A DNA stretch of 64,000 bases. Origin: an uncultured Pseudomonadota bacterium (GTDB lineage Bacteria; Babelota; Babeliae; Babelales; RVW-14). Positions 2,678-60,655 of this stretch are shown in pieces; within the stretch, counting starts at the first letter, position 1, and each line of letters starts with the position of its first letter. The stretch is taken from the NCBI GenBank assembly GCA_964354855.1, contig CAYHBO010000001.1, positions 31,045-95,044 of the forward strand. Reading direction: 5' to 3'. The notes below the pieces were generated by a model. It was given only the letters and a program-made list of their open reading frames with translations. It ran no database searches and was not told where the DNA came from. Position numbers and translations under genes: made by a program.

Positions 2678-4577
2678 AGCTCAGAAGATTGCTGCAGGGG
2701 AAGTTATTGAACGGCCCGCACATATCATAAAAGAGCTTCTTGAAAATGCGCTGGATGCAGGCGCCACTAAAATTGATATTTATCTTGAACAAGCCGGAAA
2801 AAAACTTATTCGCATTGTTGATAACGGATCTGGCATGTCACCTGATGACGCTCGTCTCTGTTTTGTTAAACATGCTACCAGTAAAGTTACCTCGCTAGAT
2901 GATCTTGAACATATTAGCTCATTTGGCTTTCGTGGGGAGGCGCTTGCAAGTATTGCTGCCGTCAGCAGAACGACCCTTAAAACTAACACAAACAACACTG
3001 ACGGCAACACTTCTCTAGGCATTGAAATTGATTATGAACAAGGCAACATCATTCGCGAACAAGCCATCGCTTATCAAACTGGCACTGAATTTATCGTTCA
3101 AGATCTTTTTTACAACATGCCAGCTCGACGAAAATTTTTACGACAAGATGAAACTGAAATTAACCAGGTAAACCAACTCATTAATGCGGCCAGCTTAAGT
3201 CATCTCAATGTGAATTTTCGATTTTATGTTGATAATAAACTGGTCCTCAATGCTCCTGCGAACAACAACCTTTCTGAACGCATTACGCAGCTCTGGGGAT
3301 ACAACACGGCACAAAATTTGGTGCCCATGCTCTCACCGCTCATCCTGAGGAGCCCGCAGGGCGTCTCGAAGGATAACAAGCATTCCTGGGTATCCATCAC
3401 TGGCGCCGTATCACAAAACAGTTTTTGGCGTCACGGACGTGACCGTATTTTCTTTTTTGTTAACAATCGTTGGATTAAAAACAATGAGCTAAGTAAAGCC
3501 GTTTTAAAAGGCTACGCAAATGCATTGCCTCCAGCAAAATTTCCTATGGCGTTTATTTTTATCACCATCGATCCAAGTTATGTTGATATCAACGTACACC
3601 CTAAAAAAGAAGAAGTTAGATTTCTAAAACCTGGGATCATTGAAACACTTTTACAAAAATCCGTACAACAGGCACTTGAGAATCAAATCACACAATTACT
3701 AAGCGCAAGCACACAAGAATTTATTCCCGCACCTGAACCTATTTTTTCAGGTCAAAAAAGCACTTCTATGCCTCGAGAATTTTCACCAAGCTTCCCTGGA
3801 TTTTCAATGCCGTCTTTTTTTAGACAGCCGCAAGAAGTTGAACCTAATAAGGCCGCCATGACTCAAAACGATACGCTCCTAACCACGAACGACGATAAAC
3901 AAATTTTCCAAAATAATCCCAAAGAAGTAGAAAAAACGCACAAACAAGACCCACTCGTCCCAAGAAGCCAACAGGGCATCTCGAAAGATTTGAGCAACCC
4001 GACCTACACCATCATGGGACAACTTTTCAACACCTACATCGTTTTAGAAAAAACTGACGAATGCATCATTATTGATCAGCACGCGGCCCATGAGCGCATT
4101 TTGTATGAACAATGGAAAAGTAATTTTGAAGGATTAGAAGGGATCAGCTTACTGTTTCCAGAAGTTATCACGATCCCAGAACACCAGGTTGCCATGATCA
4201 TGCAAGCACAAGATATTTTTGCAAAACTTGGCATTACCTTAGAGCAATTCGGCAAACAAGAACTGATCATTAAATCATCGCCACCAAAAATTCAAGGCAC
4301 CAACTTAAGTAACACCATTAAAGAAGCAGCAATTTTTATTGAAGAACACAACACTCTTGATGAAAATGATCTTCGCAAAAAACTTTATGAACACATACAT
4401 AGCCATATGGCTTGCAAAGCAGCGGTGCGCGCGGGCGACACCCTTACTCCCAGCATGATCAAACAACTCATTAACGATTTATTAACCGTCGAAAATCGCT
4501 TCCAATGCGTCCACGGTCGTCCGACCATGTGGACAATCACTAAGCTTGAATTTGAAAAAAAATTCAGGCGCTGTTAA
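2646..4577 (+). CDS. mutL: DNA mismatch repair protein MutL (endonuclease type)
   Basis: GTG start. GHKL ATPase motifs are present (AAGEVIERPAHIIKELLENALDAG, DNGSGM, GFRGEALASI). The C-terminal region has DQHAAHERILYE, ACKAAVRAGD and QCVHGRPT. Carries two in-frame PE2 repeat insertions. Confidence 0.95.
   Translation: MNKIHLLPAHEAQKIAAGEVIERPAHIIKELLENALDAGATKIDIYLEQAGKKLIRIVDNGSGMSPDDARLCFVKHATSKVTSLDDLEHISSFGFRGEALASIAAVSRTTLKTNTNNTDGNTSLGIEIDYEQGNIIREQAIAYQTGTEFIVQDLFYNMPARRKFLRQDETEINQVNQLINAASLSHLNVNFRFYVDNKLVLNAPANNNLSERITQLWGYNTAQNLVPMLSPLILRSPQGVSKDNKHSWVSITGAVSQNSFWRHGRDRIFFFVNNRWIKNNELSKAVLKGYANALPPAKFPMAFIFITIDPSYVDINVHPKKEEVRFLKPGIIETLLQKSVQQALENQITQLLSASTQEFIPAPEPIFSGQKSTSMPREFSPSFPGFSMPSFFRQPQEVEPNKAAMTQNDTLLTTNDDKQIFQNNPKEVEKTHKQDPLVPRSQQGISKDLSNPTYTIMGQLFNTYIVLEKTDECIIIDQHAAHERILYEQWKSNFEGLEGISLLFPEVITIPEHQVAMIMQAQDIFAKLGITLEQFGKQELIIKSSPPKIQGTNLSNTIKEAAIFIEEHNTLDENDLRKKLYEHIHSHMACKAAVRAGDTLTPSMIKQLINDLLTVENRFQCVHGRPTMWTITKLEFEKKFRRC
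3338..3374 (+). repeat. PE2 element (right module) in frame in mutL
   Basis: GCTCATCCTGAGGAGCCCGCAGGGCGTCTCGAAGGAT, giving peptide LILRSPQGVSKD. Confidence 0.8.
3952..3989 (+). repeat. PE2 element (right module, diverged) in frame in mutL
   Basis: CACTCGTCCCAAGAAGCCAACAGGGCATCTCGAAAGAT, giving peptide LVPRSQQGISKD. Confidence 0.7.
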
Positions 4578-4646
4578 ACAAATTTCTTGTAAATTAACTG
4601 CCCCATTGCTTATACCAAGAACAAACCTTTAATAAAAAGAAAAATC

Positions 4647-58252: not shown

Positions 58253-60655
58253 TCACCCTATGACTTTCAACACTGCATCAGGATTAAGTGACATTGAATC
58301 AATCCCAAGCTCTATAAGAAATTTTGCAATTTCTGGGTAATCAGACGGTGCTTGTCCACAAATGCCGATCGGTTTATTATTGCGCTTTGCGCCTTCAATG
58401 GCTTGCTGTAAAAATGCTTTAACTGCGTCATTGCGTTCATCGAAAATGTCGGCAACCAAATCTGAGTCACGGTCTACCGCTAAGATCATTTGAGTAAGGT
58501 CATTGGATCCGATTGAATAACCATCAAAGATCTGTAAAAATTGATCGATGAGAATTACGTTTGAGGGAATTTCACACATCATGTAAATTTCTAACCCATT
58601 AACTCCTTGGGTAAGCCCATGGGTTTTGATGGTGTCTATTACCGCTTTGCCTTCAGCTACGGTTCGTACAAAGGGGATCATAAGCTTAACGTTAGTTAAT
58701 CCCATTTCATCACGTATTTTTTTCATTGCAGCACACTCGAGTGCAAAGGCGTCTTGGTAAGCAGGGTGGTGGTAGCGTGAAGCTCCGCGAAATCCGATCA
58801 TAGGGTTTTCTTCTTTGGGTTCAAAATAATTGCCGGCAACCAGGTTACGGTACTCATTGCTTTTAAAATCTGATAAACGAATGATAACTGGTCGAGGATA
58901 GAATGCTGCAGCTATTGTGCCGGCTTCTTGCGCGAGTCGATTAATAAAAAATTCTTTCTTATCGGGGTATTGGGACGTGAGTTCTTCAATGGCTTCTTGG
59001 TCTTTTTTGTCAGTAACTTTTTCAGGATGTACTAGTGCCATTGGATGGATTTTAATGCCGGCGTTAATGATAAATTCTAGACGAGCAAGCCCTACGCCAT
59101 CGACCGGGAGCATTGATTGAGAAAATGCTTCGTCGGGGTTGCCTATATTTAACATTATTTTGGTTTTTTTGTCGTTCGCCCTGAGGAGGCTCAAAGAGCC
59201 GGCTCGAAGGGTTTCTGTCCGCTTTATCTCAAATTTTTGTATGCCATCATATACTACGCCAACTTCGCCGTTACTACAATCGATCGTAATTTCTTGTCCC
59301 TCTTTGATGAGTTCAGTTCCGTTATGAGTTCCAACGATTGCTGGGATGCCAAGTTCACGGCTGACGATGGCGGCATGGCAGGTGCGTCCGCCACGATTGG
59401 TGATGATGCCGGCTGCAATTTTCATGATCGGTTCCCAGTCAGGATCGGTCATCTCGGTCACTAAAATATCGCCAGGTTTAATTGAACTCATCTGTGCGGT
59501 TGAGGTGATAATGCGCGCTTTACCGACGGCAATTTTTCTGCCGATACTTTTGCCTTCTAAAATAATGTTTAGGTTATTCGTTGCAGATTTTATGAGCGTA
59601 TAATCTTCAATGAACGTGTCATGTTGTTTTAATGAATATACGGTTTCAGGGCGTGCTTGCAAGATGTATAGTTTGCCATCAAGCCCGTCTTTTCCCCATT
59701 CTATATCCATAGGACACCAATTATTTTTAAGTTGTGCATAATGATCTTCTATAATAACCGCTTGTTGCGCGAGCGATAGAATTTCTTCATTGGTTAGGCA
59801 ATAACGGCTTTGTTCTTCCTTTGGTACTGGAATATTTTCAACGGTTAAGCCATCTTTTTCGCTATAAATCATACGTAAATGCTTAGTTCCTACGCGTTTT
59901 TTTAAGATTGGTTTAAATCCTAGTTTTAACGTTGGTTTATGTACATAAAATTCATCGGGGATAACGGTGCCTTGAACAATATTTTCACCAAGTCCATAGG
60001 ATGCATTGATCATGACAACATCACGAAAGCCGCTTTCAGTATCCAGCGTAAAAATAACGCCTGAGCAGCCTTTGTCGGTGCGAACCATTTTTTGGACCCC
60101 AATTGAAAGGGCGATATCCATGTGTTCATAATGATTATCGATGCGATATGAAATGGCGCGATCGGTAAAAAGTGAGGCATATGAATGTCTGCATGCTTCT
60201 AGAAGTGCATCGGCGCCACGAATATTTAAATATGTTTCTTGTTGACCGGCAAATGAAGCTTCAGGTAAGTCTTCTGCGGTAGCTGATGAGCGGACAGCAA
60301 CGTCACAGAGAGTGCCATAGCGTTGTTCAGCTTGTTGGTATGATTGTCGAATTTCTTGAATGACAGATTCAGGGAGCGGGGCATTTGCGATGAGCTTTCG
60401 AATTTCTTTGCCGGAGCGTTCCAAGGTAGTTAAGTCTTTTTTATTTACCTGACTGAGTAATTTTTGGATGACCGTGTCAAGATTATTTTGTTTGATATGT
60501 TCACGATAAGCATCGGCGGTAATGGCAAATCCTGAAGGGACTGATACCTGTTTTGCGGAAAGTTTTTGAATCATTTCACCAAGATTTGCATTTTTTCCAC
60601 CAACAATGGGAATATCATTGACGCTAATTTCTTCGAACTTTTTAATAAATTTCAT
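58253..60655 (-). CDS. ppsA: phosphoenolpyruvate synthase
   Basis: N-terminal ATP-grasp (GGKNANLGEM), phosphohistidine swivel (GGRTCHAAIVSRELGIPA) and PEP-utilising TIM barrel (GSNDLTQ). An in-frame PE2 insertion lies between the swivel and the barrel. Confidence 0.95.
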   Translation of the reverse strand: MKFIKKFEEISVNDIPIVGGKNANLGEMIQKLSAKQVSVPSGFAITADAYREHIKQNNLDTVIQKLLSQVNKKDLTTLERSGKEIRKLIANAPLPESVIQEIRQSYQQAEQRYGTLCDVAVRSSATAEDLPEASFAGQQETYLNIRGADALLEACRHSYASLFTDRAISYRIDNHYEHMDIALSIGVQKMVRTDKGCSGVIFTLDTESGFRDVVMINASYGLGENIVQGTVIPDEFYVHKPTLKLGFKPILKKRVGTKHLRMIYSEKDGLTVENIPVPKEEQSRYCLTNEEILSLAQQAVIIEDHYAQLKNNWCPMDIEWGKDGLDGKLYILQARPETVYSLKQHDTFIEDYTLIKSATNNLNIILEGKSIGRKIAVGKARIITSTAQMSSIKPGDILVTEMTDPDWEPIMKIAAGIITNRGGRTCHAAIVSRELGIPAIVGTHNGTELIKEGQEITIDCSNGEVGVVYDGIQKFEIKRTETLRAGSLSLLRANDKKTKIMLNIGNPDEAFSQSMLPVDGVGLARLEFIINAGIKIHPMALVHPEKVTDKKDQEAIEELTSQYPDKKEFFINRLAQEAGTIAAAFYPRPVIIRLSDFKSNEYRNLVAGNYFEPKEENPMIGFRGASRYHHPAYQDAFALECAAMKKIRDEMGLTNVKLMIPFVRTVAEGKAVIDTIKTHGLTQGVNGLEIYMMCEIPSNVILIDQFLQIFDGYSIGSNDLTQMILAVDRDSDLVADIFDERNDAVKAFLQQAIEGAKRNNKPIGICGQAPSDYPEIAKFLIELGIDSMSLNPDAVLKVIG
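59173..59212. repeat. PE2-like element in frame in ppsA
   Basis: CGTTCGCCCTGAGGAGGCTCAAAGAGCCGGCTCGAAGGGT, giving peptide LRAGSLSLLRAN between the swivel and barrel domains. Confidence 0.65.

Follow-up and report, generated by a model that had tools for sequence, protein, structure and literature searches.

The PE2 repeats of the 64-kb stretch of AT-rich DNA from an amoeba-parasite-like (Dependentiae) bacterium analysed here (referred to as the window) are short, GC-rich imperfect palindromes of 37-55 nt, and the core genes hold surviving in-frame copies only at loops and linkers. They are probably non-autonomous selfish DNA of the class of REP sequences and Rickettsia palindromic elements (RPEs), which expanded in a Dependentiae lineage and survived where it was tolerated. 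Selfish DNA within protein-coding genes, as found in Rickettsia and some REP-rich bacteria, would thus be extended to the candidate phylum Dependentiae.

Eight PE2 loci were found in the window (Table 1), matching the original prediction of at least eight occurrences, and their GC content of 54-67% compared to 38.5% for the whole window agrees with the predicted value of about 60% against an AT-rich background. Module A, searched as a 31-mer with ≤ 3 mismatches, had two matches in the window and none in 100 shuffles; a third copy, located in the ComEC gene, has an internal indel. The string initially proposed for module B matched exactly only at 3338-3373. The core CCTGAGGAG-N6-16-CTCGAAGG had four exact matches (3344, 20905, 42757, and 59180) and none in shuffled sequences, and the same was true for the single match of the terminal pattern GCCGYTCG..CGARCGGC, which is the unit at 1886..1930. 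MutL copy 2 aligns to copy 1 ungapped with 30 of 39 nucleotides identical, nothing comparable being seen in 200 shuffles, and in the oxidoreductase copy the 12-nt arm CGCTCATCCTGA is shared exactly, together with TCGAAGGA.

Table 1. PE2 loci in the window and the genes that harbor them.
Feature	Position	Strand	Context
Module A unit without adjoining B	1886..1930	+	Intergenic, GCCGCTCGTACCCC-TCTACTCACTCGTTCCATC-GGGGCGAACGGC; between divergent genes 1425-1796 (-) and 2018-2677 (+)
Long module B, sense	3336..3374	+	In frame, MutL aa 231-243 (PLILRSPQGVSKD); E=1.9e-10
Decayed long module B	3951..3995	+	Same frame as copy 1, MutL linker aa 436-448 (PLVPRSQQGISKD); GC 54%
Module A then short module B (GCTCATCCTGAACCTGTCGAAGGA)	8459..8542	-	In frame, oxidoreductase aa 378-402
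Module A then long module B	20839..20940	+	In frame, ComEC-like protein aa 48-79; E=9e-10
Long module B	42748..42788	+	Intergenic/5'UTR; E=5.6e-8
Long module B, TGGT/ACCA subtype, full termini (GCCGTTCGTGG...CCATTTGAGCGGC)	57971..58025	-	nhmmer E=0.008
Module B variant, CGTTCGCCC arms	59171..59215	+	Antisense to PpsA, in frame aa 482-495 (TLRAGSLSLLRAND)
mutL, 643 aa	2646..4577	+	Host gene; catalytic motifs intact
Two-domain oxidoreductase gene	7469..9664	-	Host gene
ComEC-like short membrane protein gene, 401 aa (371 aa in sister genome)	20704..21909	+	Host gene
ppsA, 800 aa	58253..60655	-	Host gene

Of the eight loci in these 64 kb, five to six are intragenic; REPs of the CGTC superfamily are typically numerous and mostly extragenic. 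The copy at 42751 is non-coding and belongs to the 5'UTR of a minus-strand gene with its true start near 42712, where it precedes the Shine-Dalgarno sequence by about 25 nt. The TGGT/ACCA copy lies in the 5' region or the N-terminus of a PIG-L deacetylase gene, and its coding status is uncertain. The one sense frame containing TGA is never used by the in-frame copies.

An intact unit consists of terminal inverted arms, which in Dependentiae are GCCGYTCG...CGARCGGC, an asymmetric conserved core (CCTGAGGAGC / GCGTCTCGAAGG), and a variable inner stem-loop. Module B has the layout CTCATCCTGAGGAGC-hairpin-GCGTCTCGAAGGAT, with an outer stem of 8 bp, internal loops, and an inner stem of 2+4-6 bp; a CCA tail is absent. 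Module A is a separate unit of 53 nt that also occurs without B. The same termini, resembling the terminal inverted repeats of MITEs, delimit module A, short B, and long B; module A is a sister unit of B. The two modules are thus not parts of a single element as proposed, but separate, related units that are sometimes adjacent. The hairpin is established by covariation: in 66 copies, four variable pairs of the inner stem showed 17-32 double changes each, and the covariation score of 0.25 compares to 0.079 for shuffled data (0/500 reached 0.25) and to ≤ 0.048 with the pairing partners slid. Folding energies of intact copies are -18 and -20 kcal/mol (z-scores of about -5). The window copies have no folding advantage over shuffled sequence (z from -1.1 to +0.7), indicating that their hairpin potential is eroded. 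We also considered a hammerhead ribozyme, which requires a CUGANGA...GAAA core directly flanking stem II and an A15.1-U16.1 pair. Inspection revealed G at position 15.1 and an extra GUCUC between stem II and GAA, and there was no Rfam match.

In its core, module B is the same element as a repeat abundant in Alphaproteobacteria. Among the matches listed, it occurs in more than 120 genome loci, almost all of them alphaproteobacterial. A profile derived exclusively from 138 alphaproteobacterial copies, which had been collected by an exact pattern, detected three window copies with E values of 1.9e-10 to 5.6e-8, providing the formal similarity statistics for these. The B parts of MutL copy 2, PpsA, and the oxidoreductase were not significant with this profile (E 1-6); they are divergent or short subfamily variants. 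The heads also differ, being CCTC-AT or CGTC-AT in alphaproteobacterial copies and CGCTC-AT or CGCTC-GT in the window. An inverted dimer is present in the L127 linker, and pairs of alphaproteobacterial matches on opposite strands, 60-70 nt apart, occur among the matches listed (L025, L034, L052, L054, L080); no inverted dimer was found in the 64-kb window. PE2 would be of horizontal origin, and it draws attention to a widespread alphaproteobacterial hairpin repeat with a core that crosses phyla and with no known mobilizing enzyme.

A more far-reaching proposal, which we consider unlikely, is that one structured family, whose stems covary and whose internal-loop core is conserved while its termini differ by lineage, spans GC-rich Alphaproteobacteria with their phage-like contigs and AT-rich amoeba-associated Dependentiae, and that the repeated and independent hits in the MutL loop and linker reflect targeting, or selection acting on mismatch repair, beyond mere tolerance. 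If such a cross-phylum family existed, either a non-autonomous element would have spread horizontally along with a broadly conserved mobilizing activity, or an activity of this kind would be producing its copies de novo.

The five in-frame copies (two in MutL and one each in PpsA, the ComEC-like protein, and the oxidoreductase) were found in the predicted host genes and reading frames, and alignments with orthologs showed that all five segments are lineage-specific and missing from the closest orthologs. At MutL site 1, 10 codons are extra in comparison to L001, L003, and L004, and the segment at site 2 is missing in L001, L002, and L004. The oxidoreductase copy is not a clean addition: a variable linker is taken up or replaced by the element here. 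At two sites, the net gain of 24-30 nt falls short of an intact unit, suggesting that deletions accompanied the events or that the boundaries are blurred.

The expected location of all five copies in interdomain or loop positions was also borne out. AlphaFold models had pLDDT values < 50 at exactly residues 232-243 and 356-451 of MutL, the second range being the disordered linker with copy 2, and at residues 482-495 of PpsA, which separate the swivel domain from the PEP-binding barrel. The ComEC insert forms a loop between hydrophobic segments, and that of the oxidoreductase is part of the hypervariable linker between the ADH_zinc_N and GFO_IDH_MocA domains. MutL copy 1 is not strictly interdomain; it occupies a hairpin loop where the second subdomain (DNA_mis_repair) begins.

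Repeat-derived peptides were present in 10 of 120 MutL, 4 of 120 oxidoreductase, 1 of 120 PpsA, and 1 of 150 ComEC homologs, every time in a variable loop or linker. The loop at MutL site 1 was colonized independently in three Dependentiae lineages by copies of differing subtype and orientation, and the arm subtype of the PpsA copy was also seen in the MutL gene of L244. Recolonization of the same sites in other lineages, by other subfamilies and in other orientations, is what a selection filter would predict. The proposal that selection filters insertions to permissive linkers is supported to this extent, the filter itself being inferred. These recurrent hits, the position of the sites at domain boundaries or loops, and the reported enrichment of intragenic REPs in repair genes (PMC3733652) would also fit positively selected, functional segments, acting as flexible spacer or interaction peptides, or as intragenic hairpins in RNA or DNA that help folding through pauses of translation or transcription at the boundaries of domains. 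We regard this as very unlikely, since the peptide at MutL site 1 varies with frame and orientation (PLILRSPQGVSKD, SFDRLRTSG, VRPEPVEG), the closest orthologs manage without the segments, the hairpins of the window copies are eroded, and the composition of an older copy is drifting towards AT.

Even less probable is an origin without mobile insertion, in which hypervariable linkers drifted or recombined to similar GC-rich sequences, e.g., through converging composition or through gene conversion with intergenic repeats as the source. The linkers are intrinsically variable in length, and neither target-site duplications nor a transposase were found. However, arms of 17 nt and 12 nt are identical between unrelated genes, and the independent alphaproteobacterial profile matches window copies with E values of about 1e-10. 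Moreover, the sister ComEC locus (L126) has a clean gap of 81 nt (27 codons), and the PpsA insert adds 8 residues compared to 17 Dependentiae homologs and Neisseria 2OLS at a position that is otherwise length-invariant across 120 homologs. Chimeric joining of alphaproteobacterial reads into a Dependentiae contig during assembly or binning, as the near-identical core and the foreign GC content might suggest, is hardly conceivable for segments of 37-96 nt that have Dependentiae genes continuing in frame on either side, include decayed copies, and have relatives in independent assemblies of other samples (L002, L003, L127, L244).

According to the preferred explanation as selfish DNA, PE2 would have entered or expanded in the Dependentiae lineage after its split from the syntenic sister genome, in which no copies of PE1, PE2, or PE3 were found within 49 kb. 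Copies may have landed throughout the genome and would persist in essential genes only if the added length preserves the reading frame, the insert frame lacks a stop codon, and the site is a disordered loop or linker. Once fixed, they would decay, their composition approaching that of the AT-rich host. The 64-kb window contains no transposase or RAYT-like gene, and no target-site duplication was recognizable in comparisons of filled and empty sites, the flanks being too diverged. Such copies map where MutL, PpsA, and other enzymes naturally tolerate insertions, with the same loops hit independently across lineages, and they account for odd inserts of low confidence as well as for spurious N-terminal extensions when Dependentiae proteins are annotated.

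In-frame intragenic REPs, many of them in genes for replication and repair (Di Nocera, De Gregorio & Rocco 2013, PMC3733652), and in-frame intragenic RPEs (Ogata 2000, 2002, as summarised in PMC10969869) have been described, and PE2 adds to this known phenomenon. PE2 resembles the CGTC REPs (PMC3733652), which are likewise short GC-rich imperfect palindromes, occur mostly in Alphaproteobacteria and also in intracellular bacteria, form inverted dimers, include in-frame copies inside genes, often those of replication or repair, and have no known dedicated transposase. The head of CGTC REPs is CGTC, TGTC, or CCTC and precedes a stem starting with AT; alphaproteobacterial PE2 copies read CCTC/CGTC-AT-CC, and window copies read CGCTC-AT or CGCTC-GT. 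CGTC REPs have a stem of 8-9 bp, a loop of 4-5 nt, and a CCA tail, whereas PE2-B is longer, its stem being a composite in which the internal loops are conserved and the inner hairpin of 6-16 nt varies. In addition, the Dependentiae copies are extended by extra arms on the outside (GCCGYTCG/CGARCGGC), their phylum is not one of the five reported for CGTC REPs, and PE2 peptides are missing from the published list of intragenic CGTC REPs (PMC3733652).

With the RPEs, as far as the summary in PMC10969869 describes them, PE2 shares its selfish, palindromic character and the insertion in frame, at positions compatible with the protein fold, in many housekeeping genes that are unrelated to each other and belong to an obligate intracellular bacterium. 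According to the same summary, classic RPE-1 is about 100-150 bp long, AT-rich, and confined to Rickettsia, whereas PE2 measures 37-55 nt and is GC-rich in an AT-rich host; compared by description, PE2 also differs from RPEs in having a core common to free-living Alphaproteobacteria. REPIN/RAYT systems and MITEs (Bertels & Rainey 2011, PMC3116915; PMC10969869) are similarly short and non-autonomous, with terminal inverted repeats or hairpins, inverted dimers, and lineage-specific bursts. Unlike REPINs, PE2 has no GTAG head and no RAYT or transposase gene in the window, no target-site duplication was visible in its diverged flanks, and its core has been preserved across phyla, while a REPIN family is usually restricted to one lineage.

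Two of the RPE families, RPE-4 and RPE-6, belong to the CGTC REPs (PMC3733652). Another family of the window, PE1 (CGTC-ATCCTCGC-GAAT-GCGGGGAT-CCA), has the stem of 8-9 bp, the loop of 4-5 nt, and the CCA tail, and fits CGTC-1 exactly; its peptides WIPAFARMT match Coxiella peptides listed in PMC3733652.

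PE2, a family of short GC-rich imperfect palindromes, is present at eight loci in the window. Their GC content of 54-67% clearly exceeds the 38.5% of the window, which agrees with the original prediction of at least eight GC-rich occurrences against an AT-rich background. A 31-mer of module A was found twice in the window and in none of 100 shuffles, and a third copy of this module has an internal indel. For module B, the pattern exactly as predicted had a single match, whereas its two-part core was found four times and never in shuffled sequences. The second PE2 copy in mutL is identical to the first one at 30 of 39 positions without gaps, a match equalled in 0 of 200 shuffles. 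The oxidoreductase copy is a short-loop variant having the exact arm CGCTCATCCTGA, followed by TCGAAGGA, in common with other copies. In one copy, TGGT...ACCA replaces TCCT...AGGA, a compensatory swap.

Positions of repeats and other features in the window, with the MutL site 1 elements of two further loci (L002, L244)
Feature	Position (strand)	Remark
PE2 module A, 31-mer	1898-1928(+), 8501-8531(-)	
PE2 module A, third copy	20847(+)	internal indel
PE2 module B, exact predicted form	3338-3373	sole match
PE2 module B, two-part core	3344, 20905, 42757, 59180	CCTGAGGAG-N6-16-CTCGAAGG
PE2 copy with TGGT...ACCA	57971-58025(-)	
MutL site 1 element, window	3336-3374	long, sense
MutL site 1 element, L002		short, 37 nt, antisense
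MutL site 1 element, L244		short, sense, CGTTCGCCC arms; host 34% GC
PE1	15394-15519, 17913-18026, 25502-25650, 30128-30158, 37353-37472, 55585-55704, 58058-58228	CGTC-ATCCTCGC-GAAT-GCGGGGAT-CCA
PE3	23884-23955, 30192-30231, 61078-61092, 61257-61305	begins GTCATCCTGAAC
Unannotated ORF with PE3	60606-61850	
DnaA-box-like cluster	48846-49028	
Oxidoreductase gene	7469-9664	
Oxidoreductase-like fragment	5623-5811(-)	63 aa, intergenic
gltX-like ORF	50971-51756(-)	261 aa
Cys-rich repeat protein	56704-57231(+)	
Eukaryote-like proteins	40714-41781 and 41825-42778 (-); 4647-5594, 19433-20290	

The best named relatives of the window proteins are from Candidatus Babeliales/Dependentiae (TM6), with 45-50% identity for MutL and 64-67% for PpsA, and metagenomic relatives reach 69-77% identity; the names of these homologues are the basis for the taxon. 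As empty-site reference, we used a syntenic Logan contig, SRR16642447_16744 (loci L004, L005, and L126). The 49 kb of this sister genome contained no copy of PE2 or of PE1 and PE3, two other GC-rich repeat families, compared to 8 PE2, 14 PE1, and about 5 PE3 units in the window.

Five PE2 copies are located within genes, i.e., two in mutL and one each in ppsA, a gene for a short ComEC-like protein, and a gene for a two-domain oxidoreductase (ADH_zinc_N + GFO_IDH_MocA). As originally proposed, all of them are predicted to be read through in the host reading frame. The predicted insert peptides of the MutL and PpsA alleles are LILRSPQGVSKD / TLRAGSLSLLRAN, and the PE2 sense frame containing a TGA is used by no copy. 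The copy at 42751 is non-coding; the downstream gene actually starts at its second Met, in front of which AGGAGA is found. At MutL site 1, the window contains 10 codons that are missing from the homologous loci L001, L003, and L004. At site 2 (3951-3995), located in the linker, L001, L002, and L004 lack an element and L003 has a related one at the same place. PpsA has 8 additional residues at its site compared to 17 Dependentiae homologues and the solved Neisseria enzyme 2OLS, and the insert in the ComEC-like protein, situated in the loop that follows the second hydrophobic segment, corresponds to a clean 27-codon (81 nt) gap in the sister gene. The predicted lineage-specific insertions were thus absent from the closest orthologues, with one exception to simple addition: in the oxidoreductase, PE2 sits in a linker between the two domains that varies in length and cannot be aligned among 21 homologues, and here linker sequence appears to have been replaced.

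AlphaFold models made on orthologue alignments predicted pLDDT values below 50 exactly at residues 232-243 and throughout residues 356-451 of MutL, i.e., at both insert sites, and at residues 482-495 of PpsA. The latter insert is located at the transition from the swivel domain (Pfam 392-463) to the PEP-binding barrel (492-798). These predictions are in line with the assumed inter-domain or loop positions. MutL site 1 is an inter-strand loop where the DNA_mis_repair subdomain begins, not strictly between domains.

The same sites are occupied repeatedly. At MutL site 1, three different elements were found in three lineages, and the closest oxidoreductase homologue (L127) carries an inverted dimer of the long-loop variant of B in the same linker. 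Repeat-derived peptide signatures were present in 10 of 120 MutL, 4 of 120 oxidoreductase, 1 of 120 PpsA, and 1 of 150 ComEC homologues, always within a variable loop or linker. We infer that PE2 is a hairpin element that is mobile but non-autonomous, and that its copies within genes would be the survivors of a selective filter; with the filter as a deduction, the earlier interpretation that selection restricts insertions to permissive linkers is supported. No transposase was found in the 64-kb window and no target-site motif or duplication was recognised at the PE2 sites, the flanks being too diverged in filled/empty comparisons.

A search for the core TCCTGAGGAGC-N6-16-TCTCGAAGGA with one genome per species gave at least 120 matches, and those listed were almost all alphaproteobacterial (Bradyrhizobium, Reyranella, Bosea, Methylocystis, Devosia, and others). 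The alphaproteobacterial consensus is cCTCATCCTGAGGAGC-[GC-rich hairpin]-GCGTCTCGAAGGATGagg, and the TGGT/ACCA subtype also occurs among these copies. A profile built on 138 of them detected three window copies with E-values of 1.9e-10, 9e-10, and 5.6e-8 and the copy at the PIG-L gene (57971-58025) with 0.008; the B parts of the MutL-2, PpsA, and oxidoreductase copies were not significant. Shuffles and E-values together uphold the proposed repeat similarity. Judged by sequence, PE2-B and the alphaproteobacterial repeat are the same element. Its GC-rich composition in a host of 38% GC, together with its near-identity to copies from Alphaproteobacteria, suggests a horizontal origin in Dependentiae. 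GC-rich IMG/VR contigs, possibly fragments of prophages or hosts, likewise carry both variants (62 and 44 stretches).

The PE2-B hairpin is supported by covariation. In 66 aligned copies, each of four variable pairs of the inner stem showed 17-32 double changes, and the covariation score was 0.25 compared to 0.079 in shuffles (0 of 500 reaching 0.25); with slid partners, it did not exceed 0.048. For the intact Dependentiae copies in L127 and L138, the folding energies are -20 and -18 kcal/mol, respectively, with z-scores of about -5. Since the window copies folded no better than shuffles, which fits erosion after insertion, the structural case rests on the covariation in the wider family and on these intact copies. 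Rfam gave no family match in the window, six alphaproteobacterial loci, and six module-A loci. A hammerhead ribozyme, suggested by the resemblance of the core to CUGAnGA...GAA, was rejected because of a G at position 15.1, an extra GUCUC, and the lack of an Rfam match.

Intact module A is a 53-nt unit (GCCGTCGCACCCCTCTACTCGCTCGTAAAACTCGCTCCATCGGGGCGAACGGC), of which 12 near-identical copies were found in AT-rich metagenome contigs, mostly without adjoining B, and none in 898 kb of alphaproteobacterial loci. Two window copies, at 1886-1930 and in the oxidoreductase gene, have an internal deletion. In Dependentiae, the termini GCCGYTCG...CGARCGGC are common to A, short B, and long B. Because of these shared termini and the frequent absence of B next to A, we read A and B as related units that have their end structure in common and are sometimes adjacent, and not as the two modules of one element initially assumed. 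In the metagenome loci L135 and L132, short-B-like units carry a nested module A in their loop (GTCCTGAGC-[A]-AGTCGAAGGGAC), and in L134 module A adjoins a CGTC-type REP, suggesting that members of one repeat family insert within or next to those of another.

CGTC-tagged REPs are known mainly from Alphaproteobacteria, but also from Rickettsia (RPE-4, RPE-6), Wolbachia, and Coxiella; they frequently form inverted dimers, no transposase is known for them, and in-frame copies occur within genes, many of them for replication or repair (Di Nocera et al., 2013, PMC3733652). The RPEs of Rickettsia are the classic in-frame selfish DNA (PMC10969869). PE2-B resembles the CGTC-tagged REPs in head and arm, which read CCTC-AT or CGTC-AT in alphaproteobacterial copies and CGCTC-AT or CGCTC-GT in the window, but it is longer, has conserved internal loops, and is missing from the intragenic list of PMC3733652. 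Literature searches by repeat sequence string gave only chance primer matches, and the Dependentiae genome papers found did not mention such repeats. PE1 fits CGTC-1 exactly, and its peptides match Coxiella entries of PMC3733652. It mostly forms intergenic, REPIN-like inverted dimers about 70 nt apart, and some units cause spurious N-terminal ORF extensions, e.g., WIPAFARMT. Two PE3 copies lie in frame within an unannotated ORF (peptides CHSELDSGS and CHPELACPPKPWRRLDSGS), so that in-frame insertion extends beyond PE2.

Several further features were observed in the window. A cluster of DnaA-box-like repeats (TGTGGATAA/TTATCCACA) with 11-nt spacing and perfect 37-nt inverted arms is flanked by nusA and a C11 peptidase gene; the latter is the adjoining ORF that had been considered as dnaA. 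Exactly at this cluster, the cumulative GC skew (46-52 kb) stops falling and begins to rise, suggestive of a replication origin. The oxidoreductase-like fragment shares 67% identity with the oxidoreductase over residues 559-621 of the latter, and it probably is what remains, as a pseudogene, of a duplicated copy. The gltX-like ORF covers only the catalytic core (residues 46-271 of the 483-aa GluRS of the sister genome); a truncated paralogue, a pseudogene, and a GluQ-RS-like protein are all conceivable. A small secreted-looking protein without Pfam match contains three Cys-rich repeats (RRPLKGxWxCxxCxKTVYRGKHTC), with a DNA period of 144 nt and 82% identity; its ORF and the PIG-L gene are both missing at the syntenic position of the sister genome. 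The eukaryote-like proteins include a RING-finger (zf-RING_2) protein, an adjacent paralogue with the same 5′ region, and two ankyrin-repeat proteins, and RING-finger and ankyrin-repeat proteins are typical of host-interacting intracellular bacteria.
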